A program made the position numbers and the translations under genes. Source: Naegleria gruberi (taxonomy: Eukaryota). Taken from it: DNA of 64,000 bases. Positions within the stretch are counted from its first letter, which is position 1, and each line of letters opens with the position of its first letter. The DNA lies in the NCBI GenBank assembly GCA_000004985.1, contig GG738927.1. One strand, given 5' to 3'. This document shows positions 25,679 to 53,594 of the stretch, piece after piece. The notes beneath the pieces are model-generated. The model worked only from the letters and a program-made list of their open reading frames with translations. It was not told the DNA's origin and searched no databases.

Positions 25679-28404
25679 ATGCAACAACAAGTCTTAGAGG
25701 ATGATGTGAAGGATAAACATTATCATTCGGAAGAAGGCTTGGATGATGGCAGTAGTAGTAACAGCAAAACTTCATCATCAACTTTATCTACTAATGTTAA
25801 TAGTAATAATACAACGACAATAAGAATGGAAAATTCAAAGAGTAGTAAGAATATGGCGGTGGAGGAATCGGTGGTCAATCAGGATAACAATATTGGTGCT
25901 AGTAAGAATGATGTTAATAGTAATATGCCAACAATTGTTATTCCTCATTCTTCGGAGAGTAGTAATTCAACAATTGCACATCATCATTTGCCCTTCAAAG
26001 TTGTAAATAACATCCACAATGAAAAAAGAAATAATTCTGTAGATTCCTTCTCCTCTGTGAGTATTTCTCCAACGACACCATCCACTGCTGGAAGTAGCAT
26101 TACTGTAAATTCAAATATTAGTTATAATAATAGTCGATTTGTAAATACGAATTTCACTTTTGGTTCATCAGGCTCTTTGACATTGACACCAACTGGTATT
26201 CACTCTCCTTCAATTCAAAATTCTGCCTCTATGAATAATTCAACAGGTACACTTCCGAGTGTTGATTCACAAAATATACATTTTTCAATGCCAATAGAGC
26301 AAGGTGGCCAATCCTATCAAAACTTGTCTGTGGATACTTCTCATCCTGAATTTTTACCTGCCACCAAGTTGACAGGAACTAGTAATTCTAGTTTTGGATC
26401 GTTAATCAATGGAACAAGTACCCAAAACAGAAGTGTTCTCTCAGTGAGATCAGTTGGCTCAAATATTGCCTTTGTGCCATCTCCTGGTTCTTCCAAGACA
26501 ATAATTTCTCCAGTGGCAGTTTCTTCATCAGTTTCCTTCGCAAATAATACAAAGAATAATACCATAAGCGACCCAGTTGCATTGAAAGGTACTGAATATT
26601 ATCATCATGATGAGGATGAAAAGGACGATTTTAAAAATGATGAAATCTCTACCTTTAAGGATGTGGATTTGAATCAAGAAGTTTCCGATGAGGATGATGG
26701 ATCGTCTCATAGAGATTCAATTGATACTAACAGAAAGAGTGTGGAATTGTTACTCAAGGATATTCCAACCTCTACTGGTAAAAGTGATGATTTTCATAGA
26801 GAACGATTGTGGAGACATTTCACTAAAACTAATATTGCTTTTGGTGTTTACAATTTAATTAATGATGTTGTATCACCAGCAACAATTAGTTCAGGTTATA
26901 CTGTCGCTCAGTCTGGTATTGGCGCCTATGTTTTAACATTGGTCATTGTTGCCTGTTTGATATTTTTCACGTTGATAATTCTCTATGATATGGCTAATGC
27001 ACAAAAAGTTACGAGTTTTCCTTCATTGATTAAGAAAACTTTTGGAAATATTGGATATATTTTGATTTGCATATTTATATTTTTGTTCAATTTTGGAGCT
27101 GTTTGTTCTGAACTTATTGAAATTTCTCAAATTTTGCCTGATTTATTGTATGAGCTTATTGGAAAGGAGTCAGTTTTCATTTCAAGATATGCTGTACTTG
27201 TTTATGTAACCATTATTTTGTTACCAATTGCATCTATGAAGCAATTATCAAGCTTCAAGTATGCTTCCCTCATTTCTGTAACTAGTGTTGCCCTAATTTC
27301 CATCTTATTGACCTATGAGCTTGGTCTCGGTAGAAGAAAGGTTCCTTACAATGATTCAGTTTTTGATTTTTTAAGACCTCAATATTTGAGCGCTATGGGA
27401 ACCTTGAGTTTTGTTTTTGTTTGCCATGATGTAAGTAGTATTACACTCATACTGATTCCAATAATTCCTAAAATCAATAGGTGAGTTTTGAGGTGATTGG
27501 ATCACTCAAAAACAATAGTAGAAAGCGTTACATGATTCTTGTATTTTGCATGCTTCTTTTGGCTGTTGGAGTTCTTCTTTTTATGGGACTTTCGAGCTTT
27601 TTATTGTTTTTCGATGTCAATTTGAAGGATGCCAATGTTTTGGATTTATTACCAAAGAATTATGGATTGGCGATTTTGGCAAGAATTCTCCTTTGTGCCT
27701 CTCTTGGATTATCAATTTCCTACACTTGTTTCATGCCTCGATTTGCCCTTAAGTCAGTAATCAAGACAATTTTGCAACAATTCGACGAAGTTAAACAACA
27801 AAAGGAACAATTCAAAACAAAACCATTCACTAGTGAACCATCCGACGAAAATACAGTTACTGAAAGTGAGCTTACTGTAGTGAGTGCTGGAAAGGACTCT
27901 GAAGAGGAGGATGCTGCAACAACTAGTGTCAATGAAACTTCACCAACAAGTGAAAATACCAAACACAAGAATGCAGTCTTGGCAAGTATTTCCAGATTCT
28001 TTGCCACCAGAACAGGAAAAGACGCTCTCCACTACGGAACTACCTTAATAGTTGTCCTGTCTGCTTTCATTGTTGCAATACTTGTGGAAAATTTGGGAGT
28101 TATTATTGGACTCACAGGAGCCATCAGTGCCACAACCATCGCTTATATTTTCCCAAGTTTGACCTACATTGTTTTGGAGAGAAGAGAACGAAAGGAAATG
28201 ATTGCAAAACTATTGGAAAAACAAGATTATGAAATGGTCAAGAATCACAAGGAAGCCAAGTCAACCAATACCAGCAAGAATATCAAACTTTCACTTCCTT
28301 GGACAAGAAGGGCTGCTGTGGCCTTCTCTTATTTTGTCTTGTTGACTGGATTTGCCATTCTTGTATTGAGTTTATCGAGTATTATTTATTATGCAGTTCA
28401 ATAA
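25679..28404 (+). CDS. Amino-acid transporter of the AAAP/SLC38 (Avt-like) family, 2 exons (25679-27430, 27481-28404), about 892 aa including a ~380-aa N/S/T-rich N-terminal extension
   Basis: After a long low-complexity N-terminus come 11 predicted TM helices. GTAAGT donor directly after ...SFVFVCHD; the 50-nt intron ends in AATAG; exon 2 continues VSFEVIGSLKNNSRKR...ILVF..., reproducing the conserved FxxVCHxxxxxIxxSLK segment of AAAP transporters. Exon 2 also contains an S/T/E-rich loop. Confidence 0.7.
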
Positions 28405-29157
28405 AGTTTTTACTAAACTTGAGATTGAATAAACTAAACTTTATCAAATTGATTTCTTCTTTTTTGGATAATGAGTTTAAAAACTCTTACCCAATGCTTT
28501 TTCTTAAATTTATAGCAAGTTTTCTTCACTAGCTTCCCGGAAATTTTCGCCGCCGCCGCCATAGCAAAAGTAAGGTCCTCCGACAAGTGTATGGTTCTTG
28601 TTGCATCCGAGTTTCATGTAAATATAAGTGCATGGATAGTGCAGTGGCATGAATCTGGTAATACCAACGCAGAGACGTTGGTTCGATTCTTGATAAGCGA
28701 TAAAATTTTAATTTTTATTTGTATCTTCTAAAGTTAATAATAGTTTGGATCTGCATAAAATAATTGCATATCTGAATTATTTAATCCATTATGAAAAGAA
28801 ATATTATTAATCATTTTTCTGTCTTGTTTATTTTGTACTTCCGTTCCCACTTGTTTTATCATTTCTGAACTAACTTTAAATTTAGCATAAAAATTGAATA
28901 AATTGTTTTCAATGTGGAAATAAATTGAATAATTATTGTAAATAATTTAGTAAAATCAAATAACTGTTAAACATGGATTCTAATGTTTCAGTTGAACTTG
29001 TTAATATTAATTCGCGTTGTATAAATAATATCCATTATTTATGAATATTAATTAAATCATTTAGTATACTTAAACTTGTAATATTAGATTCTATTTAATT
29101 TAATCTATTGAATATGTTAAAAATATTTGGAACCTATGAAGTGGAAGAGTAAATTTA

Positions 29158-29532
29158 TTATTCATTAAGTTCATCATTTACACATTGTTTGAAAAAGTTT
29201 ATAAAATCTATTTGAACATTTAAAGAAGATGGTAATTTTGATATAATATATTCACAAACATTAGAATACGGCTTAACTAAGCCAAATTGTTTTTGATTGA
29301 GTGATTTTAATATTAAAATAGGAAAGGTTGAAATTAATTTCCCAACAATAGCTTTTCTTATATAATTAGCATATTTCAAATTAGTCAGTTGTTTAAAATG
29401 TTCTTGATTATCATGGTTTTTGTTGTCTATTAAATTATGATATTTAAAAAATTCATAAACATAAATATTTTCAATATTAATATTAATAATATTACTTTCC
29501 CTTGTACTTTTTAATAATGATATAATGATCAT
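29158..29532 (-). CDS. Hypothetical ORF (about 125 aa from the first ATG), or the 3' exon of a larger gene
   Basis: The minus-strand frame is open from about 29756 to 29158 but has no ATG until about 29532. Extremely AT/Asn/Ile-rich. Low confidence that it is coding. Confidence 0.2.
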   Translation of the reverse strand: MIIISLLKSTRESNIININIENIYVYEFFKYHNLIDNKNHDNQEHFKQLTNLKYANYIRKAIVGKLISTFPILILKSLNQKQFGLVKPYSNVCEYIISKLPSSLNVQIDFINFFKQCVNDELNE

Positions 29533-29759
29533 ATCATTATTCACATCAAAATTTTTAATTAGGTGTTTAGTATGATTATTATTAATTACATTTTTAATAT
29601 TAATTAATAAATTATCATGATTAACTTGTTGAATAATTAATTCTTGAATTATTTTATCTATTTTATCTAGTACTATGTTATTATTTGGAGTAATTGATGA
29701 AGTAATAATAGTATTTCCAGATTGTTGAATATTGTTGGAAGATTCAATTGTAGAATTAT

Positions 29760-30420
29760 TATTAGTACTGATTGGTATTGTTAAATTAATTGCAGATTCT
29801 ATTGTTGTTGTAGTAGTGTTTGTAGGTTCTATTGTTGTTGTTATTAAATTATTTGATGTTGTATTTGTAGGTTCTATTGTTGTAATTGATGTAATTATTG
29901 AATCTGTTGTTGTACTTGTTAAATTATTAATATTTATAGTGTTTGTAGGTTCTATTATTGTATTTGTAGATTTAGTAGTTGTTGTTAAATTATTTGATGT
30001 AGTGTTTGTTATTGGAGTACTTATTAAATTATTTGTAGGTTCTATTGTTGTTGAATTATTTATAGTATTTGTAGATTGTATTGTTGTACTTTTTGTAGGT
30101 TCTATTGGTTTTGAATGTCTTATTATTCTCTAAATTATGTTAATGAAATATAATTAATAAAACAAACCCGTTTTTTTGTTGTTGTTAAATTAGTATGTTC
30201 TATTGTTGGTGTGGTTGTTATTAAATTATTTGATGTAGTGTTTGTTGGGTCTATTGTTGTTGTTAATTTAATTGTTGAATCTGTTGTTGTTGTTGTTAAA
30301 GTATTTGATGTAGCATTATTCGTAGGTTCTGTTGTTTTTAGTTTTTTGTGTCGCTTTGATGTTGTTAAATTATATTATATTTAAAATTAAAACAAACCCG
30401 TTTCTTATTATCACCATTAT
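29760..30420. repeat. Degenerate minisatellite: irregular 45-90-nt units built on TGTAGGTTCTATTGTTGTTG..., embedded in a ~240-bp tandem duplication (AAAACAAACCCGTTT at about 30161 and about 30401)
   Basis: The motif gtaggttct recurs at about 29822, 29867, 29945, 30035, 30094 and 30322 with irregular spacing. The block ...gttgttaaattat(a)t...aaaacaaacccgttt occurs twice, about 240 nt apart. The minus-strand reading gives T/N-rich peptide-like units (EPTNTTSNNLITTTIEP) but is interrupted by stops in every frame. The plus-strand ORF at 29732-30133 (GSIVVV... repeats) is a translation artefact of the repeat. Confidence 0.6.
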
Positions 30421-30715
30421 CATCACCATTATTCTTATCATCATCATCATTATTATTATCATATTCATCATTATTATCATCATCTTGTTCAACCTTTCTT
30501 TTACCAAACATCTTCTCCTCTATCGTAGTAGGAGGAAACAAAAAATGTTCACCATAAATAAAATTATCATTTGTTAAATCAATACATTCCATATTAACAA
30601 ACTCTTTTATATTATATGAATGTATAATGTGATCAACATGGATTCTAATAAATTTTGCTCCTTCGTGGATTTTTAGGTTTATGGATTTTGTTATTGGTGG
30701 ACCTTGTATTCTCAT
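30365..30715 (-). CDS. Hypothetical protein (116 aa) with a D/N-rich acidic tail
   Basis: ATG at 30715. MRIQGPPITKSINLKIHEGAKFIRIHVDHIIHSYNIKEFVNMECIDLTNDNFIYGEHFLFPPTTIEEKMF, then DDDNNDEYDNNNDDDDKNNGDDNGDNKK. The 3' end runs into the minisatellite. Confidence 0.3.
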   Translation of the reverse strand: MRIQGPPITKSINLKIHEGAKFIRIHVDHIIHSYNIKEFVNMECIDLTNDNFIYGEHFLFPPTTIEEKMFGKRKVEQDDDNNDEYDNNNDDDDKNNGDDNGDNKKRVCFNFKYNII

Positions 30716-30792: not shown

Positions 30793-31476
30793 TCATAAAC
30801 GTTCTTTCCAAACTTTCTTTCCTTTAGCTAACTGTTCATTAACTAATTGCAATTCAAACACAATATAATCAAACTCTATTCTGATCTTGTGAGTTTCTTG
30901 TAAATAAACCAATTTTAAATTCACTACCATTGACCTCCACTTCTTCTTTTTATGTTCCCATTTATACAACCACCAATATCTATTATCCTCAAGAATAGGA
31001 AGAAAGGAATTTGGAGCATCATTAATCCATTCTAAAGTAGTTCTATCAACTTTTCTGCTACTTCCAGCCTCAAGTCCTCTATCAAAAATCCGATAATTGT
31101 CTTTGCTTTTACTTCCGTGAAATGATAAATCCAATTTCATACATAAAGCTTTCCATTCTATTTCATCACAACTAATTGTATTGTAGGTGTTAACAAATCT
31201 AGATATAGAACGTTTAGCATCTGGCACCATTCTTCTTCTGATAATATCCACAATCTCAGCCTCCATTACCATCACACGCTTCAAATAATAATCAGCATCA
31301 AAAATAAAAAAACTTTTTCGTTTTCCAATTAAATTATCGTCCAATCCTTCATTAAAATCACCAAAGAGATCCAAATAATCATCTAAACTCCCATCATCTG
31401 CTTTTTCGACAGTAGCAGCAAGCTTTTGTTCAACTTCTTCCAACACAGCCCTCTTCGAGACTTTTTTTTTGATCAT
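30793..31476 (-). CDS. Hypothetical protein (227 aa)
   Basis: ATG-initiated ORF ending 78 nt upstream of the 30715 start; it is unknown whether the two are exons of one gene. No recognised domain. Confidence 0.4.
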   Translation of the reverse strand: MIKKKVSKRAVLEEVEQKLAATVEKADDGSLDDYLDLFGDFNEGLDDNLIGKRKSFFIFDADYYLKRVMVMEAEIVDIIRRRMVPDAKRSISRFVNTYNTISCDEIEWKALCMKLDLSFHGSKSKDNYRIFDRGLEAGSSRKVDRTTLEWINDAPNSFLPILEDNRYWWLYKWEHKKKKWRSMVVNLKLVYLQETHKIRIEFDYIVFELQLVNEQLAKGKKVWKERL

Positions 31477-34072: not shown

Positions 34073-34870
34073 TTAGATTCTAAAAAATTGTCTCTTTCCC
34101 ATCAGATAATAGGCCACAATTCTCGTACCTATCAGTGCAACCGAACCAAATGATGCAATCAAAAAGCCATAAAGTATGGAACCAATATAAAAAATCATGT
34201 GATACTTGTAGAACTCAGGTTCAACCGTACTGCATTCTTTTTGGTTGACTAAAGCAAACGAACATATACGAAGGACAATTGCAATCAGTATACAGCAATA
34301 ATTGAGGATATTAAAGATGGTAAAACCCTTCGTCGTTTGCTTTTTAACATGATATTCAAATGTCTCTGCATCCCATTCCTTGTCAACCTTCATGCACTTT
34401 TGTTTAATTGTTTCCTCTACAAAATGCATAATCTGATAAAGGGAAAATAACAGAAACTGAATGAGAAAAAGTATGGTGATTGTTTTGCACTGACACGATT
34501 CAGTATCATCCAAATGAAAGAAGAAAGCAATGATCAGCACTATAGTTTGTCAAAATTATTTGAAACTATATCCGAAACAAAAACACATACCTTCAACTAT
34601 TTTATAAAGCAAGGAAACCAAGTAAGCTAAAACGAGTCCTACTTTTGACAAACTATTGTGTTTTTATCTTCAACAAGTTATCGGAAAGTGAGAAACTTAC
34701 ATTTTGGCAAGCAGAGTGGCGAGTTTACTTCTCTTCTCACTTTCGTTTTCTTGTTGAACAACTAAATTATTCTCAAGATTGTTGACAACCTTTTTTTCCA
34801 CATTTTCTCTTTTTTCGAAATTCTCATCATCAATTCCCAAATTCTCCTTGCTATTGTTGTGTGAAATCAT
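34073..34870 (-). CDS. Small Cys-rich multi-pass membrane protein, paralogue A; at least 2 exons (34870-34701 and 34539-34073, possibly with a micro-exon between)
   Basis: Exon 1 (MISHNNSKENLGIDDENFEKRENVEKK...LATLLAK) ends at AT|GTAAGT. The last exon encodes ...LDDTESCQCK...VEPEFYKYHMIFYIGSILYGFLIASFGS...YYLMGKRQFFRI with 3-4 TM segments. Paralogue B shares the DTESC, (V/E)PEFY and MxGK(R/N)(Q/E)F(F/S)R motifs. Confidence 0.5.
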
Positions 34871-34899
34871 ATTTTTTTTAAAACGAATTTTTTTAAAAA
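34871..34899. promoter_or_regulatory. 29-nt gap between the divergent start codons of membrane protein A (34870, minus) and kinase 1 (34900, plus): ATTTTTTTTAAAACGAATTTTTTTAAAAA
   Basis: Both ATGs were verified in the sequence. The spacer is an A/T palindrome-like element, so any promoter or TSS for either gene must lie inside the other gene's 5' region. Confidence 0.3.
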
Positions 34900-35920
34900 A
34901 TGTCAATTGACTTGTCGTCATCCTCAAAGAAGAAGCATCACGATGACATTTTAAACAAGTTTGGTCTCGATGTGAACATTACACTTGTTGGATCTGGTGG
35001 TTTTGGTTGTGTGTACAAGGTTGATGTGTCAGAAAATTGCTATGCCATAAAGGCAGTTGATTTTGTGGAGGATAATCAAATTTCGGAGAAACCAACAAGA
35101 AGTGAAGTGGTTATAGAAGCCATGAGAGATTTTAAACATGAGAGATTGTTGAATATTATGGAGAGGTTTGAAGTGGACTATACTTTGTACATGGTTTCGA
35201 ATTTTTGCAAATACGAAACATTGGAACAAATTGGAGGATATTTGAAACTAGATGAATACCATTGTTTGTTGATACTGAATCAATTACTGGAAGGTTTAGA
35301 ATATTTGCATTCCCAAAAACTCATACATAGGTTTGTTTTATAACTTAACCAAATATTGTAATATACGAAACAACCTAAACAGAGATATTAAACCTAGTAA
35401 TGTCCTAGTGGAATCAATAGATCCTACACGAGTTATTCTCGCAGATTTTGGGTTATTATTGCATGAGCATGGAAATAGAGCTGATCAAATGTGTGGTACC
35501 TTATACTATCTGCCTCCTGAAATTTCCCCAACAGGAGGAAAACGATTCACCTTCGCAGCTGATATTTATTCACTCGGATTGACCATAATTTCAATGATGG
35601 GAGTTCATATTCAGTTTCCAAGAACCTCACTTACTGTCAAAGGTCAAGTAATTCAGGGACTAAGGGAGAAATTAAGTAAGGCAACTATAGATATCCTATT
35701 GGATATGATTCATCCGTCACCTTCTCTCAGAGCTAACTTTTGCACAAACTTAAAAAAGAGAGTCAATCAAGTGATGAAAACTCTTGAAAACACTGAAAAT
35801 CTCTATCAGAATCGGCAAATGTATGAAGATATTGAGGAAACTGCCTTTTACAAAATTGGTTATTTCCTAAACGAAGTTGTGGATATTATAACCAATACCA
35901 AAACAGCAAATATTATTTAA
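34900..35920 (+). CDS. Protein kinase (Ser/Thr-type catalytic loop), paralogue 1; 2 exons (34900-35330, 35383-35920), about 322 aa
   Basis: GSGGFGCVYK (Gly loop), AIKAV (VAIK-type Lys), then ...LIHR|DIKPSNVLV, split by a 52-nt intron (GTTTGT...AACAG) in phase 2. DFG (ADFGLL) and a PPE-type APE motif (YLPPEI) follow. Confidence 0.85.
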
Positions 35921-35938
35921 TCAATTATTACAAAAGAT

Positions 35939-36759
35939 TTATTTATATCTAGAGAATTCATTCTTTCCCACCATGAAATTGGCAACAACTCTCAACAGCA
36001 TGTAAACACAAACTGTACACAAATTGAATACTATGACATATACTAAAAAGGAGCAAGTATACGACAAGACATTCGAATAAAATTCTGGAACTTGACTAGT
36101 GTTTTGGCATTGAGAAACGAGTGCAATATTACATATTGTTAGAATAACGACTGGAACTATGTGTACAACATTACATGATCTGATACAACCGTACATTGAA
36201 TCATCACACACTTCACATTTGAAACATGATTTCATACAGACCAAGCAAGTGTTTAACAATAATGAAAATATGGAACATGACAAGATGATAGAAGAGATGG
36301 AATGTGATTTACATGATTCGGTATCACTCAACTGATTGTATCTATTATAGAGAACGCCTAAACTGTCAAGTTATTCAAATATTGCAGAATAAACTTACAT
36401 CCCCAAATGTTAAATGCCAAAATTGTGAAATAATCAAAGAGAAGGTATAATCTAAATATTCTATTGTGTAAATTGCCAAGTTAATAAAGAAAATCCAAAA
36501 CTTTGAAAACTCACATGGATCCTGCTTTTTTTCCAGTCGTGGTCTGAGATGAGATTTGTTCTTCAACAGTTTTTGGTTTAGCATTTGGAATCACAAGAAG
36601 CGAATTATCATTCCAAAGATCCGATACTTGTTCAGAATGTTCATTAGGGTGGAGAGCAACTAATGACATGTCATCAACATCATTGTGTGAATCCATTTTT
36701 TTGAGATGACTGTCAACTAAACTGTTGAAGAAATGCTTGTGGAAATAGACGTGGGACAT
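35939..36759 (-). CDS. Small Cys-rich multi-pass membrane protein, paralogue B; at least 2 exons (36759-36515 and 36331-35939)
   Basis: ATG at 36759. Exon 1 ends at AT|GTGAGT, the same AT|GT donor arrangement as paralogue A. The last exon encodes (L)SDTESCKSH...QVPEFYSNVLSYTCSFLVYVIVFNL...FMVGKNEFSRYK. Confidence 0.5.
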
Positions 36760-36796
36760 CTTTCACACACACTTTGTGTGAAACACTTATTAAAAA
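36760..36796. promoter_or_regulatory. 37-nt gap between divergent start codons of membrane protein B (36759, minus) and kinase 2 (36797, plus), containing the inverted repeat TTTCACACA-N5-TGTGTGAAA
   Basis: The 9-nt arms at 36761-36769 and 36775-36783 are exact reverse complements. The arrangement mirrors the A/kinase-1 pair. Confidence 0.3.
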
Positions 36797-37922
36797 ATGG
36801 CTGACAACGATACAACATGTGATCAAATGATGATGGATTATTCATTTGGAGGTGGTCATATCAATTCAAATTTGCGAGGAAATTTACCCAACGATCAAAG
36901 AATTAGAATGAAACACATGAATGCCATCAATAACCATTATTACCTTTACAGTAATAATTCTAATACGAATTCTAATACTAATTCTAATAATGTAATAGAA
37001 CCTATAGGAGCAGGAGGATTCGGCACTGTCTACAAAACACAAATTCCCTTCGATAATACCATACACAATGTTGCCATTAAAGCAATTGAATTTGCAGAGG
37101 ATAATCCAAAGAGTGAAAGTGAAAAGCAAAAGCCAAGCAGAAGACAAGTAATGAAAGAGGCCAACAGAGTATTTGTGCATCCTCGACTTTTATATGTGAT
37201 GGATAGTTTTGAGGAGGATAAAACTCTCTATATTGTCTCGCCATTCTATGCAGGTGGAAGTTTGGAAAAGAATCAAGTAATAGAGGAGAGGTCATGTTTG
37301 ATAATTCTTGAACAGGTGTTGGAAGCTCTCGAGGTGTTACATGCCAATGATTACATTCATAGGTAGGTTTTGGTTTGGCAATCATGGAAACTAAACTAAT
37401 CTCAGAGATATTAAGCCTCACAATATTTTTGTCAGAAATTCGAATCCAATTGATGTTGTTCTTGGTGATTATGGACTGCTGAGATCTGTACACACCTTAA
37501 AAACAACAGGATTTTGTGGAACAAAATACTTTACAGCACCTGAAATTAAGGGAACAGATGTTTCAAGTTACACAAACAAATCAGATATTTACTCAACTGG
37601 TATGACAGCATTGAGATTATTGGGAGTTATTATTTCCGATCCAAGAACGACGACTACATTTAAAAGCCAAGTCGTCAATGGATTAGCATCTAGGAATGTT
37701 AGTAGGGAAACAACAGAGTTGATATTGCAAATGGTTCATCCAAACAGAAGAAAGAGGCCAAATGCCACACAAGCAAGACAACAAGTTCAACAAATTTATT
37801 TCATCTTGTTGCAACAATCGAATGATTTCTCTCCAGTTTCGCCAATTCAAACAACTAATAGTGGTAATTATGGAGGTTTTTTGCATGCTGTGTTGGACTC
37901 CTTTTCAGAACTTTTCTTTTAA
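36797..37922 (+). CDS. Protein kinase, paralogue 2; 2 exons (36797-37362, 37406-37922), about 360 aa
   Basis: GAGGFGTVYK, AIKAI, ...YIHR|DIKPHNIFV with a 43-nt intron (GTAGGT...TCAG) at exactly the same position and phase as in kinase 1. DYGLL (DFG variant), TAPEI. The N-terminus has an N/S-rich repeat (NSNTNSNTNSNN). Confidence 0.85.
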
Positions 37923-38018: not shown

Positions 38019-39497
38019 ATGCAAACAAGGGTCGTACTGTCGGACTTTCAAACTCTTGATGATTCATCACTGTTTCAATTATTTGAAAAGATGAAACATA
38101 AACTTTCAACAGCTAGAAAATCAAAAAGAAAATTCTTGGAAAATCGAATGAATATTGCTTTCGGATACATTCCCATAGAATTTTACAAAGATAGGGAATA
38201 CGTTTTGGCATCCATCAAGAAGAATGGCTCTCATTGTCTCTATGATATTCATCCAGAAGCCTTCTCCGATCGTGAAATTCTATTCGAAATGTTAAAATCC
38301 CTTAAAAATGATAATTTTGCATCTGTTCCAATTGACAATGAAATATTGAAACCATTTGCTAATGATCGTGAAATTGTCAAATTATTAATTCACCTAGATT
38401 CTTCTTTCTTTGACAATCAAAAATTCAAATTCGATAGAGAAATGGCTCTATTGGCATGCATTTCATGTTCAGATAACTGTTTCGGGATTAGTACGGAGTT
38501 TATGGAGGATGAGGAGTTTGTTTTGAGTGCTATTGAGGAGAATTATTCAGTATTCAATACAACAAGTGATAAATTGAAAAATGATAAAGCATTTATTAGA
38601 AAGGCATTGAAGAGAAATGGAAAGGTAATTTACGAGTTGAGTGATGAGCTGATGGGTGATGAGGAGCTCATTAAGATTGCTATTGAACAAAACCCAATGG
38701 TATTCGAAGCGATATATGAAAATGAGAGTATTAATTGTGGAGCAGATGTTATCAAGATGGCTGTCGAGAAGAATGGACAGTTATTGCAATTTGTGACGGA
38801 AGATTTGGAGAATTTTGATAGAATTGCAGTGAAACAGAATCCATTGGCATTGGATTATGCAAGTGATCAATTGAAAAATGATAGAGATAGTGTTCTGGAA
38901 GCTGTCAAAAAGGATGGATCTTGTTTTGTTTATGCATCTGAAGAATTGAGAAGTAATTCTTCATTCGTGCAAGAGGTAATTGATAATTGTGCAATTCCAA
39001 AGGAAAGCAATGAAATGCATCACGTTCTACTCCTCATTTTGAAAGAAAAAGGATATTGCCCTACCTCTGTCTATGAAGCATTGAGAAATATTGATAAGGA
39101 ACTTGCTTTGAGAATAGTTAGCATTCATGGAGAGATGATTTGTATAATGGTCGATTGGCAGAATGATAGGGATGTGTTACTGACAGCATTTGAAACATGC
39201 ACTTCATCTACAGGAAGAAAACGTATCTGCTCAAATATTTATATTACTGATAAGGAGTTAATTTATGAGATTTTTGTAAAATATTCCACTGATATTATAG
39301 GTCAAATTTATGAATTGGATGTTGAATTGTTGAGAAGATTGCTTCAAATTGATGGTTCTGCATTTCGTTTAATGGATGGAAAGTTTAAGGATGAACCTAT
39401 ACTGATTGAAGAAGCTTGGAAACAAAGTGGATATGTTGATGGGCCATCTGATGAATTATATACGAAACGTATGGAATATGCCTATCCAGAATTGTAA
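38019..39497 (+). CDS. DUF4116-repeat protein (492 aa), single exon
   Basis: Repeated ~35-aa units of the form D(R/K)E(F/I)VL.A(I/V)(K/E).NG..L.Y(A/I)S.EL.ND(R/K) (for example DREYVLASIKKNGSHCLYDIH, DRDSVLEAVKKDGSCFVYASEELRSN, DKAFIRKALKRNGKVIYELSDELMGD) match the DUF4116 repeat family. Confidence 0.7.
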   Translation: MQTRVVLSDFQTLDDSSLFQLFEKMKHKLSTARKSKRKFLENRMNIAFGYIPIEFYKDREYVLASIKKNGSHCLYDIHPEAFSDREILFEMLKSLKNDNFASVPIDNEILKPFANDREIVKLLIHLDSSFFDNQKFKFDREMALLACISCSDNCFGISTEFMEDEEFVLSAIEENYSVFNTTSDKLKNDKAFIRKALKRNGKVIYELSDELMGDEELIKIAIEQNPMVFEAIYENESINCGADVIKMAVEKNGQLLQFVTEDLENFDRIAVKQNPLALDYASDQLKNDRDSVLEAVKKDGSCFVYASEELRSNSSFVQEVIDNCAIPKESNEMHHVLLLILKEKGYCPTSVYEALRNIDKELALRIVSIHGEMICIMVDWQNDRDVLLTAFETCTSSTGRKRICSNIYITDKELIYEIFVKYSTDIIGQIYELDVELLRRLLQIDGSAFRLMDGKFKDEPILIEEAWKQSGYVDGPSDELYTKRMEYAYPEL

Positions 39498-40825: not shown

Positions 40826-43764
40826 CTACTGGATACTACAACTCTTGTGTGACTTCTTCCCTGGCTTACTTGGCGATTTTCTACTGAGCAGTTGCTTAAT
40901 GTGAGGAATAGAGTCCCATTCATTCAATTTTCCTTCATACATTTTAGAAAGTGGTTTCAAATTCATTTCTGCAAACTGAGTGAGTAAATTGAATATTTCA
41001 TGAACTGGTGGTATCATTTCTGGTTCGTAGATTGGAGAGGAGGAAGGTATTCTTTGTTGTTGGAAAAGAGTTTCGTCACCAAACATTAACATCCACTTGC
41101 AAATATCTAAAAAGTTTTCAACAGAGAGTAAGGTGGCGAGCTTTCTGATTAGATATATTTGAATAACACTGTCCATTTGGAATAAACTGGCATGATAAAT
41201 CATTCCAATTAGAATGGTTATTTCACTATTCAAAAGGACGAAAGAATCATCCACCGAGTCTTGTTGTTTGGATATTCCATAGCATGCGTGCATGAGATGG
41301 AGTAGTGCCTTTTCCTTAATCTTGGCCTCTGATGCTTCGATTGCATTTCTAGAATCGAGGTCAAAATCATATAAATCCAAGCAATTATCATCTTTGGAGA
41401 ATTGGAACTGTTCATCAAATATCTTTTCAAAAAGAGGGCTATAAGATGAGAGGATTGTCTTGTGCAAGTACAATACGTGCTTCTTTTCTGAATCGATAAT
41501 TACCTTGACATCTGAAGTAGCTTGATCGTTGAACATGTTGTGGAAAATATGTCTATGGTTCGATTGTTCATGAATTGGATGATTAATGTAGTGAGCGAAG
41601 GGTTTTTTCAAGCGAACTACACGAGAGACCTTTTCCAATGGTGTATCTTGAATATTTGCATTGAAATCTTGGAAATTATCCAAGAGCATTCTTATCTCAT
41701 CGGCTACTTGATCTGTAAGTTCCACATTACCATCTATTTCTTCAACCAAATAGTACATTACAAATCTTCTAAAATTCTCTATAATTAAATCAGTTTCGAT
41801 ATGATTCATGACATAGAGAGCATGAACCTTCTCGATAGGGGTCATGCTTACTAAGTGGTCCACTATCTTCTCCTTCTTGTGCACAAAATGACCTTGAACA
41901 CAATCCACTAAATATTGAGCAAAATTTAGTGCGATAGTAGTCATGGAATTGAGATACTCTTCATTAATCACCACATTCTCATAAAATTTTGGTGTTACCT
42001 TTCTCAATAGTGGACCATATCCATAAATCTTGTCATGGATTCTATCTCTATTGTAATGTCTAATAGGGAAGTGAAGTATTGGCAGAGAATCAATTATGGC
42101 CTTTCTGTGTGCAAAGTAAAAATGTGATGAGAATGCAGATGTCTCAACTCTGTTGATGGTATCAGTGTTAATTGAGGAAACCTTCCTGAAAACAGATGAA
42201 TATTGTGTTATATCCCCTGTACCAAGTCTATTTAACTTGTGAAGAGCAGCTCTATTTAAAAACTTACCTTCCATCAGTATTAATACCACAACTGTAAGCA
42301 TTCTGATCAGTTAGGAAAACAGACAACGAAGCTCCACATGAAACATGTTTTGGAATGAGATTAGTTTTCAGCATTGCAAATTGTGGCTTTTTCACTCTAT
42401 CTGAAAGACCCAACTCACCATTGATATTTCCACCACTGCAAATCATGTATCCACCAGTATTAGTAATAGCCATCGAATGAACAAATCCACATGAAATTTT
42501 TGTAATCTTAAATCCTGGTCTTACCATGTTAATTTTGACAAACTTTTTTACACTCTTCACATTACCCAGTCCAATTTGTCCCGATTCATTAGATCCAGAT
42601 ACGTAAATCTGACCATCCTGACTCAGTAGAACTGAATGGTCCTTACCAAAACTAATATCTTGAGCCAAAAACCCAGCTTGAACCAATGTGAAATAGGCAA
42701 CGTTGGGCTTGGATGACTTTCTACCAATGCCCAACTCTCCACAATTATTCTTTCCAGCAACATATAGAGCTCCATTATTTGTAATGAATGCAGAATGATG
42801 CTCTCCACAACATAGTCTCTTGATGGGTATATTCAACTCGTACGATTCAATAATTTCTTCCTTTCCATCTTCTAATGAGTGTTCCACGACATTATCTTCA
42901 TTACTGCTTCCACTCCCACTGGATGAACATTCTTCCTCTTCATTGTTTGAGGTATTTACAGTATATTTTGGTATATTTACTTTTTCGAAATCCTCCCGTT
43001 TCACTAAATCTCCCTAAAATGATGAGTCAATAAATCAATTTCACTAACTTACCAATCCAAGTTGACCATTGGTATTTAAACCTAAATTTAATCAATTAAT
43101 ATAACAAGTCCAATTGGATGTTTCCAATAATAATTATCAGTTTCCATATTTAGATATTTTATGACTTACCACTGCTGTACAACTCTCCTTCATTCGTTAA
43201 CAACATCAAATGAAACCATCCACTCGATATTGCCTTCACCTTCTTATCAAAATGTAATTTATGCATTTGTGACAATCCAGATTGATTTGTTTTCATTGCT
43301 CCCTTGAACGAATTATATCCACTCACATAAACTTCTCCAAATTCTGTTAATATTGCCAAATGATATGCACCTGCTTCCACTTGTTTAATCATAATCGGAG
43401 CAAAAGAAGGATTTTCAATTGTATGATGAGATGAATTCTTGCTAATTGGTGTTACAGTTGGAACTGGCTTTTCCGAATAATCATCCAATTGACCCAATAT
43501 TCCATACTTGTTTTTGCCACAAGAATAGATAAGATTGAGAGGTGCATTAGGAGAGGCAATATGTAATAGAGGAAGTGAAACACTATTTCTATTATTGTTT
43601 GATGATGATTTTGAAGTATTCGGAGAAGAATTATTATTCAATGTTTCCTCTTCATCATGTTGATGATTAGCAAGCGACGATGATGCTGATGAAGAAGGAC
43701 TCTCAGGTGAAGTTGCCTCCACCATTGAATCATCTTCCGTAGTTGAAAGTCTACTCTCTTCCAT
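40826..43764 (-). CDS. RCC1-repeat + BTB/POZ protein (RCBTB-like), 4 exons including a 29-nt micro-exon (43764-43170, 43081-43053, 43013-42268, 42227-40826), about 923 aa
   Basis: ATG at 43764. Exon 1 ends ...ELYSSG with a GTAAGT donor in phase 1. The micro-exon GTTTAAATACCAATGGTCAACTTGGATTG restores the frame and yields G-LNTNGQLGL, a canonical RCC1 G.N..GQLG motif, then GTAAGT. Exon 3 (GDLVKREDF...CGINTDG) ends AG|GTAAGT and a 40-nt intron leads to R-LGTGDITQYS..., another RCC1 motif. The downstream half contains a BTB domain (DVKVIIDSEKKHVLYLHKTILSSYSPLFEKIFDEQF...DLYDFD). Confidence 0.75.
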
Positions 43765-50973: not shown

Positions 50974-52200
50974 ATGCACAACATTAGCAGTCTAGACAAC
51001 AGCACTTCCTCTCCATTATTCGATTTGATATGGCAGAATAAGAATGCTTACTATGAGCATTTGGCACTCTCCAATAAACATCAACAAGCCAAGAAGGAAT
51101 CTACTAATTCCTCTGAAAAGGAGTCAATGAATGAAGAGGAAATTGATGAAACTCTCCGATATATTGAAAATCCGTATCTTGTTGTAGAAAACAAACCAGA
51201 CACACATTTCATGCTATTGGCAAAAAATCCAGAAACTGAAGAAGGACAAGTCATGACTTTCTATAATCAAATCCATATTAATCCAGACCTTAATGATGCT
51301 AACAAATTGGATGAAGAATTGAATGGATGTTTTGAAAAATCAGCCCAACTCAAAGTTCCAATAATTTGCAGTGTTCCAACAAACGCTAAAAACACCTCTC
51401 AGATAATGGATAAGTTAATTAATAAGGGGTTCATACCATCTGGTACTGGACCAGGAATGATTTTGAATTACTCTACATTTGATAAACAGAAAGCCAAAGA
51501 TGCACTGAAATCCAATTCTGAAAAGTTGGAAATTGGTGAATTGAAACAAGTGAATTGGATACACAGATATGACGATGAACACCCTGATAATATCATGTTG
51601 AGATTATGGTGTTATACTTTGGTTTCTTCATTTGGATTCTATTCTAAAGAGACAACTGCAAATCATTTCTATGAGGTGTTCAGACATGCTCGTTTTGGAC
51701 CAGAAGAATCTCTTAGAATGTTCTATGTACTCTATAGAGAAACTCCAGAATCTAAACCAAAAATGATTAGTGTAGCCACACTCTTCGTAGAAAAGGAGAA
51801 GAGTGTGTGTGGGCTCTACAATGTTGGTACTGTAAAGGATCCAGCTATTAGAAGGATGGGTTCTGCTCGATTATTGTCCTATCATGCAGTTTTTGAAATA
51901 GGACAGGAAGAACTCAATTTGAAATATTGTACCTTGCAATCTTCAAAGGCAGCATTCAATTTGTACAAGCAATTGGGATTTGAACACATTGGAGATTGGA
52001 ACATGATTGTATATCCAGATAATGTTCACTGGTTGTTAAATCTCTTACTCAAGTTGGTTTTGTTGAGATTTGCCATGCGTCTGTTGGGTGTGAGAGATCT
52101 TTCCGAGGGATCGGCTTGGAAAAAGTTGCTGGCCTTTGTAGTGCTGTGGTTCTCATTTTTGGTTACTGTCATATTTTGGGTAGCTCCTCAAATTCAATAA
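50974..52200 (+). CDS. GNAT-type N-acetyltransferase-like protein with a C-terminal transmembrane/hydrophobic extension (408 aa)
   Basis: C-terminal half GLYNVGTVKDPAIRRMGSARLLSYHAVFEIGQEELNLKYCTLQSSKAAFNLYKQLGFEH resembles GNAT motif A/B (V..RR.G.A..L ... LY...GF). It ends with two hydrophobic helices. Confidence 0.45.
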   Translation: MHNISSLDNSTSSPLFDLIWQNKNAYYEHLALSNKHQQAKKESTNSSEKESMNEEEIDETLRYIENPYLVVENKPDTHFMLLAKNPETEEGQVMTFYNQIHINPDLNDANKLDEELNGCFEKSAQLKVPIICSVPTNAKNTSQIMDKLINKGFIPSGTGPGMILNYSTFDKQKAKDALKSNSEKLEIGELKQVNWIHRYDDEHPDNIMLRLWCYTLVSSFGFYSKETTANHFYEVFRHARFGPEESLRMFYVLYRETPESKPKMISVATLFVEKEKSVCGLYNVGTVKDPAIRRMGSARLLSYHAVFEIGQEELNLKYCTLQSSKAAFNLYKQLGFEHIGDWNMIVYPDNVHWLLNLLLKLVLLRFAMRLLGVRDLSEGSAWKKLLAFVVLWFSFLVTVIFWVAPQIQ

Positions 52201-52205
52201 AATCC

Positions 52206-53594
52206 TCAATTTCCAGATAATTTCAACCATTTTCCTAATAATTGTTCCATGTTGACATTGTTATGTGTTGTTGATGATGATGAAGAGGAAATGTTTTGAT
52301 TAATGATATCATTTGTAGATGTAGAATCATTGTCTGTGAAAAAATAATTCAATGAGGATGCTACCATCAATTTGGAACAAGTTATTGCTCCTTTCATATT
52401 GGCTAGAGCTATCCTTTTGAATTTTTCATGTTCCAATCTAGTGGGATGATAATTTCTAGCAAAGCATTCAGATCTAACAATTTTTAAACAATGAACCATA
52501 TAAATCTGTAGAGAGCTAGCTTCAAATAGTTGAAAATCTTTACATTGATAAATATCCTTACTCTGATCGTATAGATAATTGAGACAGGAGGTAAGAGCAG
52601 TGGCAGTCAACTCAGAAGCTGAACCCACAAATATTTTTACACCTTCCTCTATAGCTTTAAATATTTGATGTGATTTTGGGTAAAACTTAGGATCAAACTC
52701 TGGTCTTGAAGTGCTACTCTTTTCCATCATTTCAATATTAAACAATTTGGTGATAAACTCGTGTTGTCCCTCCAAAATTAAATTATTTTCGGCTTGCTCT
52801 TCCATCAAATCCAATTCAAACTCCTCATCAAAATCTATTTCATCAATATCTACTTCATCCTTATCCTCTTCCTCATTAATAATCTCAACTCGGTCGAATA
52901 TTGTTTCACTCGTAACTGATTCTCCACTTTCACTAATTATATCATAAGTTACAGCTTGTTCATTACTAAGATCAGATATTTCTGAAATAGGTTGAGTAAT
53001 TAAGGTGAGTGATATCTCATGTTCGTCCCTCCAAATTATTTCCTTAAAATCCAAATCAATAATGGCTCTAAATTCTGTTGGGTCCACAGTTCCTTGTTTG
53101 GCCTTGTTCACAAATTCTTTACCATCCAAAAATTCCTTTTCAATATCACTTGCTCTCTCCTCAGCAATGACTTTGAAAGAAAATAAAAGTGTTGATGGTT
53201 TCAAATGGCACGGATAAAAAGCCTGTTTAAATTGTCTCATATAATTCGTGACATTCTTCAAGTAATCCTCAGTGCCAGCTCCTTCCACTCGCACAAAGAT
53301 CGGAGTTCTCTTCAAACTCTTAATCATGTGTGCCTTCTCACCAACAGAAAGCCTAGAGAAAAAGGAATTAAAATAATAATTTTCACGATATTTAACAATG
53401 ACTGTATCGGTGACTAGATGTTCTCGAGAAACCTTCTCCGATTTGATTTTTGTTTTTTCTCCCGATTTTACATTTAATGATGTTGTTGTTGTTGAAGAAG
53501 GAGTTGTTGTACTACTTCTCCTAGAAGAAGAGGCAGCATCAGCAGATGAAGAAGTTTTTCTTGCCTTCTTGCTCCTTGTGTTTTTTGTTCTCAT
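52206..53594 (-). CDS. Hypothetical nuclear-type protein (462 aa): basic S/T-rich N-terminus, acidic D/E-rich centre
   Basis: ATG at 53594. KKARKTSSSADAASSSRRSSTTTPSSTTTTS then EEEDKDEVDIDEIDFDEEFELD. No confident domain call. The stop is only 6 nt from the stop of the convergent 50974 gene. Confidence 0.45.
   Translation of the reverse strand: MRTKNTRSKKARKTSSSADAASSSRRSSTTTPSSTTTTSLNVKSGEKTKIKSEKVSREHLVTDTVIVKYRENYYFNSFFSRLSVGEKAHMIKSLKRTPIFVRVEGAGTEDYLKNVTNYMRQFKQAFYPCHLKPSTLLFSFKVIAEERASDIEKEFLDGKEFVNKAKQGTVDPTEFRAIIDLDFKEIIWRDEHEISLTLITQPISEISDLSNEQAVTYDIISESGESVTSETIFDRVEIINEEEDKDEVDIDEIDFDEEFELDLMEEQAENNLILEGQHEFITKLFNIEMMEKSSTSRPEFDPKFYPKSHQIFKAIEEGVKIFVGSASELTATALTSCLNYLYDQSKDIYQCKDFQLFEASSLQIYMVHCLKIVRSECFARNYHPTRLEHEKFKRIALANMKGAITCSKLMVASSLNYFFTDNDSTSTNDIINQNISSSSSSTTHNNVNMEQLLGKWLKLSGN

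Follow-up and report, generated by a model that had tools for sequence, protein, structure and literature searches.

Bidirectional gene pairs such as histone H2A-H2B, GAL1-GAL10 of yeast and the human pairs of PMC1487180 consist of two divergent protein-coding genes with a short intergenic region in common; genes paired in this way are typically expressed together (PMC1487180), and their functions are often related. We analysed a stretch of 64,000 nucleotides (nt) of Naegleria gruberi DNA (assembly GCA_000004985.1, contig GG738927.1; hereafter the window) and found two adjacent copies of such a pair between positions 34073 and 37922. In each copy, a gene for a predicted membrane protein (M) on the minus strand stands head to head with a gene for a protein kinase (K) on the plus strand. 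Our analysis indicates that this M-K unit is a lineage-restricted new example of two known phenomena, tandem duplication and the bidirectional gene pair. The best overall explanation, to which we give a probability of about 0.5, is a duplicated, lineage-specific divergent pair whose two genes are probably co-regulated.

Gene anatomy and duplication of the M-K unit

The two units have the same gene order and orientation, and they lie where the original prediction, made from the sequence of the window, had placed them. Each unit spans ~1.85-2.0 kb and comprises a three-exon gene for a four-pass membrane protein and a two-exon gene for a Ser/Thr kinase. We regard this anatomy of the four genes, together with their origin by duplication, as highly probable. 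The features are as follows.

34073..34870, minus: M1, predicted four-pass membrane protein of 232 amino acids (aa), 3 exons, apparently unannotated (spliced model)
34870..34701, 34652..34591 (62 nt) and 34539..34073, minus: exons of M1, the sole in-frame model
34700..34653 (48 nt, GTAAGT..AATAG) and 34590..34540 (51 nt, GTATGT..TATAG), minus: introns 1 and 2 of M1
34871..34899: spacer 1, from the M1 ATG to the K1 ATG, 29 nt, ATTTTTTTTAAAACGAATTTTTTTAAAAA (read directly)
34900..35920, plus: K1, Ser/Thr protein kinase, 322 aa, identical to EFC36654.1 (NAEGRDRAFT_75663)
34900..35330 and 35383..35920, plus: exons of K1; intron 35331..35382 (52 nt, phase 2; splice reading)
35921..35938: spacer between the convergent stop codons of K1 and M2, 18 nt (read directly)
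35939..36696, minus: M2, predicted four-pass membrane protein, 220 aa, 3 exons, apparently unannotated (model built like that of M1)
36696..36515, 36460..36399 (62 nt) and 36357..35939, minus: exons of M2; in the reference a start at 36759 is also possible
36514..36461 (54 nt, GTGAGT..AATAG) and 36398..36358 (41 nt), minus: introns 1 and 2 of M2
36697..36796: spacer 2, from the conserved M2 start to the K2 start, ~100 nt (strain comparison)
36761-36769/36775-36783: 9-bp inverted repeat TTTCACACA/TGTGTGAAA within spacer 2
36797..37922, plus: K2, Ser/Thr protein kinase, 360 aa, identical to EFC36655.1 (NAEGRDRAFT_75664)
36797..37362 and 37406..37922, plus: exons of K2; intron 37363..37405 (43 nt, phase 2; splice reading)

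The exon models of the membrane protein genes were obtained by enumerating every intron with a GTNNGT donor and a YAG acceptor, and exactly one in-frame model exists for M1. Exon 1 ends with AT|GTAAGT or AT|GTGAGT as had been described, while the exon 2 of 62 nt had been overlooked in both genes (34652..34591 and 36460..36399), so that two-exon genes become genes of three exons. Direct splicing from exon 1 to the last exon, which the two-exon model implied, would put M1 out of frame and give an M2 product without its first transmembrane (TM) segment. In both genes intron 1 is of phase 2 and intron 2 of phase 1, exon 2 measures exactly 62 nt and encodes the first of four hydrophobic segments, and the intron-1 acceptor is CACAATAG.

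Both kinase introns interrupt HR|DIKP between the second and third bases of its Arg codon (CATAG|GT...AG|AGATATTAA), and our reading of this site and phase (35331..35382 and 37363..37405) agrees with the original one. K1 and K2, like M1 and M2, are paralogous by tblastn (K1 against K2, E ~1e-49), and this search of the 64-kb window found no third copy of M or K. Protein divergence between the copies is 59-73%, with 41% identity between the kinases and 27% between the membrane proteins. At the DNA level, repeats between the units survive in the kinase core only, at a spacing of 2023-2029 nt. Intron positions and phases have been kept between the copies, as has the length of exon 2 in M. The locus thus has the features of a tandem segmental duplication, namely paralogy of both genes and conserved order, orientation and intron positions and phases. 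Because order, orientation and the intron map match, the data support one old tandem duplication of the whole M-K unit at the DNA level in the N. gruberi lineage, and the ancient duplication of the whole pair that had been proposed is upheld by gene order, introns and the two protein identities.

Four hydrophobic segments occur at aligned positions in M1 and M2 (Kyte-Doolittle, 19-residue window). The motifs DTESC, CMK, PEFY and GKxxFxR are conserved between the two proteins; of the motifs noticed earlier, DTESC and PEFY proved invariant and GKxxFxR common to both. The Smith-Waterman score of M1 against M2 was 127, compared with 35+/-5.6 in 2000 composition-preserving shuffles (z=16), none of which (0/2000) reached 127. 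The similarity is confined to the TM part, and both N-termini start with M-x-S-H-N. Following the positive-inside rule, the N- and C-termini and the middle loop, which is K-rich in M1 and Cys-rich in M2, would be cytosolic, and DTESC and PEFY would lie in the two short outer loops. The description of M as a Cys-rich protein holds for M2, where 15 of 220 residues are Cys (6.8%), several of them in the middle loop, but not for M1 (7 of 232; 3.0%). Only three Cys are conserved in the alignment.

No Pfam family matched M1 or M2 at E<0.01; the best were Ribophorin_II_C (0.017-0.059) and DUF2207_C (0.24), all under the cut-offs. Despite the four TM segments, the known tetraspan families of Pfam (tetraspanin, claudin/PMP22, MARVEL, MS4A and others) gave no profile match. 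As exact sequences, M1 and M2 are absent from a collection of 15 billion sequences, and, judged by such look-ups and by homology searches, the N. gruberi reference apparently lacks an annotation for either gene. A word-indexed profile search of 5.8e9 proteins for M homologues returned only P0001, a prodigal-style call of the last M1 exon from the same locus in an ENA metagenome. A full HMMER search of 1.84e9 representatives returned P0001 and one further match, which was rejected as spurious (hhalign probability 1.4%). Nothing was found in two JGI metagenome DNA scans or in an IMG/VR scan.

K1 and K2 are annotated in N. gruberi NEG-M as "predicted proteins". Their matches to Pfam Pkinase (PF00069) reach 144.3 bits (E=5.9e-42) and 135.4 bits (E=3e-39), respectively, against a gathering cut-off of 31.7 bits. 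The catalytic motifs are GSGGFG, AIK, IEA, HRDIKPSN, DFG and PPE in K1, and GAGGFG, AIK, KEA, HRDIKPHN, DYG (a Phe to Tyr variant of DFG) and APE in K2. By these motifs both kinases look catalytically complete and active. Their C-terminal tails have a common G-x-F-L-x-x-V-x-D stretch that is private to the pair. Judged from their charged residues on reading the sequence, without a hydropathy scan, these tails are probably not TM segments. Pfam gave no accessory domain in K1 or K2, only families of the kinase type, and M and K lie on opposite strands; a single-polypeptide receptor-like kinase was rejected on these grounds.

Among solved structures, the top PDB match was PKR (4e-21), with equivalent scores for MELK, Aurora A/C and SLK (7e-21 to 7e-20). 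Membership in the eIF2-alpha kinase family of PKR, GCN2, PERK and HRI was therefore rejected, since there is no specific affinity over MELK, Aurora and SLK and no double-stranded RNA-binding domain or other regulatory domain. In 5.8 billion proteins, no relative exceeds ~34% identity over the kinase domain except the same locus in the metagenome, and single-sequence and profile searches of these proteins gave no Naegleria paralogue. K1 and K2 thus appear to be orphan kinases of no recognisable subfamily ("Other/unique"). The flanks of 80 giant-virus kinase loci contained no M-like open reading frame (ORF). These M-less flanks and the uniform ~33% GC of the module, whose composition is like that of its surroundings (34% GC over the window), rule out a giant-virus or other foreign origin.

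Strain comparison, start codons and spacers

The same locus is present on three contigs of ENA ERZ929261 at 96-97.6% nucleotide identity, and we used these contigs as a second, metagenome strain. The ORFs of M1 and M2 are intact in both strains. Insertions and deletions (indels) of 2, 3 and 4 nt fall in predicted introns and those of 5 and 16 nt in spacer 2, while indels within predicted exons are multiples of three only. M1 differs by a 2-nt indel in intron 2 and by an in-frame one of 3 nt in exon 1. In M2, intron 2 contains a 3-nt insertion that leaves its AG acceptor unchanged, and both substitutions in exon 2 are synonymous. The ratio of non-synonymous to synonymous substitution rates (dN/dS, Nei-Gojobori) is 0.08 for M2, with 10 synonymous and 3 non-synonymous changes (neutral expectation ~1:3.7), 0.16 for K1 and 0.13 for K2. 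By this measure purifying selection is clear for M2, K1 and K2 and less clear for M1. We conclude from this comparison that M1 and M2 are genuine coding genes, because indel lengths fit the exon/intron map, and because of the dN/dS values and the synonymous changes in exon 2.

Several local differences between the strains were also seen. In TM4 of M1, 8 substitutions fall within 19 nt (34166-34184; SILYGF to HVVSGI), where divergence elsewhere is ~3%; clustered mutation, gene conversion over a short tract and a chimeric assembly are all conceivable causes. In the metagenome strain, the Asn/Ser/Thr repeat in the N-terminal part of K2, NSNTNSNTNSNN (36950-36990), is longer by an in-frame insertion of 12 nt at 36987, and 3 nt are deleted in frame at 36804-36806. 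The length polymorphism of the K2 N-terminus is microsatellite-like.

The start codons of the two genes had been placed 29-37 nt apart in the original prediction. For pair 1 the distance of 29 nt is exact and solid. Just before the K1 ATG comes a stop codon in the same frame, TAA, and exon 1 of M1 has no other in-frame ATG. For pair 2 the distance is most likely 100 nt. Five nucleotides between ATG 36759 and ATG 36696 (36715-36719) are missing from the metagenome strain, in which ATG 36759 leads out of frame into a dead end of 13 codons. The ORF from ATG 36696 (MDSHND...) remains intact in that strain and resembles the start of M1 (MISHNN...). Since ATG 36759 loses the reading frame through this deletion, ATG 36696 is most likely the conserved start of M2. 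The start-to-start gap of pair 2 is then 100 nt in the reference and 79 nt in the metagenome strain, compared with 37 nt to the first in-frame ATG (36759).

The spacers had further been described as palindromic and A/T-rich. This is true of spacer 1, in which 27 of 29 bases are A/T and a perfect A/T inverted repeat of 10 nt occurs; it differs from the metagenome strain by one substitution and no indel. It is not true of spacer 2. The 37 nt around its 9-bp inverted repeat have ~30% GC and are not especially A/T-rich, and a 16-nt deletion in the metagenome strain largely removes the repeat. Because of the 5-nt and 16-nt deletions, spacer 2 is judged to behave as non-coding sequence, with a palindrome that is dispensable and not a conserved element.

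Both pairs are divergent with less than 1 kb between their genes, as bidirectional pairs are defined. Their ATG-ATG gaps of 29 and 100 nt are unusually small beside the 443-1684 nt in the 8 other head-to-head ORF pairs of the window, a comparison that is ORF-based and crude. Since the stop codons of K1 and M2 are just 18 nt apart, the 3′ untranslated regions of these two genes would be overlapping or very short. This gap is not unusual locally, where another convergent ORF pair has 5 nt between its stop codons.

Probable co-regulation, possible partnership and competing readings

The explanation that we prefer starts from a lineage-specific unit of an orphan M and an orphan K, which would have been duplicated in tandem at the DNA level. 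A single bidirectional control region, A/T-rich and very short, would most likely drive both genes of a pair; their leaders would overlap or have very little length, and the M and K within each unit would be expressed together. Because only 29 nt separate their start codons, the genes of pair 1 would have to share or interleave control sequences, and co-regulation is therefore likely for this pair. An even chance seems appropriate for a shared promoter and co-expression of M and K in general. The alternative set up in the original prediction, overlapping 5′ regions or a compact bidirectional promoter, stands for pair 1, where promoter and 5′ sequences must overlap the partner gene; for pair 2 the argument from 37 nt and a palindrome fails.

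Beyond co-regulation, the soluble kinase may be recruited to its neighbouring M, regulated by it, or phosphorylate it, which would amount to a "split receptor kinase"; this step is speculative. A physical or functional partnership of M and K is plausible, though we would put it at only one chance in a few. A role of M as membrane anchor or sensor for K is attractive, with K soluble and M predicted to have both termini in the cytosol, but speculative. In its most specific form, this idea describes a Naegleria-specific split receptor kinase, in which M would sense through its DTESC and PEFY loops and dock or activate its cognate K, the 29-bp promoter would set stoichiometric co-expression, and duplication would give two insulated cognate pairs. 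We consider this form improbable.

Several results weigh against our preferred explanation. Both pairs are copies of one ancestral pair, and the pairing kept between them is weak evidence for coupling. The M-K pairing is one observation and not two, because the arrangement of copy 2 was inherited from the same duplication; the earlier statement that conserved divergent pairing suggests that the products work together was an over-reading for this reason. No other genome or locus with either the M or the K family was found in the collections searched, and the further copies of the pair that were to be looked for are likewise missing from the window. The pairing is present in the metagenome strain (L002, L003), which at ~96-97% identity is too close to be informative. 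Spacer 2 tolerates 21 nt of deletions, and a specific promoter element that is conserved is therefore not apparent. Between M1 and M2, the N-terminal parts encoded by exon 1 have no detectable similarity (z=-0.5), and dN/dS of M1 is 0.43, with 8 synonymous and 14 non-synonymous changes, which is not significant and indicates relaxed constraint; the raised value is partly due to the cluster of 8 changes in TM4. An AlphaFold2 model of the exon-3 part of M, built from a two-sequence alignment, had a mean confidence (pLDDT) of 56 and a predicted TM-score (pTM) of 0.37, too poor for structural inference.

The strongest competitor, which we rate somewhat below even odds, is that M and K are functionally unrelated and became incidental neighbours in a compact genome, with one duplication spanning both. 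They would not have separated later, since with gaps of 18-100 nt any breakpoint destroys a gene. A single event accounts for both pairs under this account, the 5- and 18-nt stop-to-stop gaps speak for general compaction, independent co-occurrence of M and K was found in none of the collections searched, and the adjacent genes (DUF4116, RCC1-BTB, amino-acid transporter) have no functional theme. However, the other head-to-head pairs of the window have 443-1684 nt between their starts against only 29 and 100 nt here, which makes regulatory coupling at least hard to avoid, and all four genes have stayed intact despite divergence to 27-41% identity. The coupling could also be antagonistic: overlapping 5′ ends of M and K and 3′ ends of K1 and M2 would act by promoter occlusion or natural antisense and make expression mutually exclusive. 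A 29-nt spacer is indeed too small for two independent core promoters with their leaders, and the 18-nt gap between K1 and M2 fits as well. But very short leaders explain pair 1 equally well, pair 2 has ~100 nt, and crowding of 3′ ends is common in the window, so that we hold antagonism to be very unlikely.

Finally, M1 and M2 might be no genes at all, only chance ORFs or decayed pseudogenes antisense between kinases that alone were duplicated. Their apparent absence from the annotation of N. gruberi and from every collection of proteins searched, the lack of a Pfam family and the dissimilar exon-1 regions would agree with this. It is contradicted by the paralogy of M1 and M2 (z=16), by a conserved three-exon structure with canonical splice sites, matching phases and an exon 2 of equal length, by four TM segments in both proteins, by the excess of synonymous changes in M2 (10 against 3), and by indel lengths that obey the exon/intron map while the ORFs stay intact in two strains. 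These results have largely refuted this possibility already, and hardly any weight is left to it.

Surroundings, significance and comparison with known systems

Across the window, seven long ORFs without introns match N. gruberi NEG-M proteins exactly (EFC36651, 36659-36661, 36678, 36681 and 36685), all of them on a single scaffold of 174,313 bp. No RNA genes were found in the module region, and our literature search on Naegleria promoters, head-to-head genes and the kinome found nothing relevant. The neighbouring genes have no common theme and include a DUF4116 repeat protein (38019..39497), an RCC1-BTB gene, an amino-acid transporter and several ORFs without Pfam families. Several side observations were made on these surroundings.

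25679..27484 and 27481..28404, plus: two ORFs with a 4-nt overlap, matching Aa_trans profile positions 6-211 and 212-380, which read as one amino-acid transporter gene (25679-28404) split by a frameshift or short intron
29000-30500: region of 20-24% GC (~33% around it) with strong GC/AT skew and no long ORF, between the amino-acid transporter and 30793..31476
30793-31476, minus: EFC36682, 227 aa, no Pfam family; EFC40789 and EFC49454, on two further N. gruberi scaffolds, are copies of at least 90% identity, and the gene may belong to a mobile element or a dispersed repeat
38019-38270: first 84 codons of the DUF4116 gene, with 5 non-synonymous and 1 synonymous change against the metagenome strain; dN/dS is ~1.3 from tiny counts, in contrast with the adjacent kinases
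40826-43764, minus: RCC1 repeats in 43159..43764 and 42264..43004 and a BTB domain in 40826..42301, probably one multi-exon RCC1-BTB gene
50974..52200, plus, and 52206..53594, minus: convergent ORFs with 5 nt between their stop codons; overlap of 3′ ends seems to be frequent in this genome

For the N. gruberi reference, the two apparently unannotated spliced genes would add a new orphan family of four-pass membrane proteins, and the likely start of M2 is corrected. To our knowledge, promoter architecture in heteroloboseans is essentially unstudied, and the 29-nt start-to-start spacing offers a natural test case for the minimum size of a bidirectional promoter in a heterolobosean. If M and K cooperate, the locus would represent a membrane-kinase signalling module of two polypeptides that was born and duplicated in one lineage. 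If they do not, the locus is one more tandem duplication of the usual kind in a compact genome.

K1 and K2 are like other members of the eukaryotic protein kinase superfamily in having a full Pkinase domain with every catalytic motif. They differ in being equally far from several unrelated subfamilies, with best relatives just 29-34% identical. Tetraspan scaffolds that recruit kinases are known elsewhere: yeast Sho1, with four TM segments and an SH3 domain, binds the mitogen-activated protein kinase kinase Pbs2, and tetraspanins associate with protein kinase C. The likeness of M and K to these scaffolds is a functional analogy only, of a four-pass protein with predicted cytosolic termini and a soluble Ser/Thr kinase. 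M has no sequence relationship to them, and no SH3 or docking domain, tetraspanin CCG motif or large loop. In these systems the genes are not neighbours, and the interaction of M and K is purely hypothetical.

The bidirectional pairs named at the outset differ from the present ones in several respects: the spacing of 29 nt is extreme and is counted here between start codons and not between transcription start sites, the partners are orphans, and the whole pair has been duplicated in tandem. With tandem segmental duplications of several genes the locus shares a direct repeat of ~2 kb, conserved gene order, orientation and introns, and the later divergence of the paralogues. It differs from them in that the borders of the unit nearly coincide with gene ends, with 18 nt between the units, and is otherwise ordinary.

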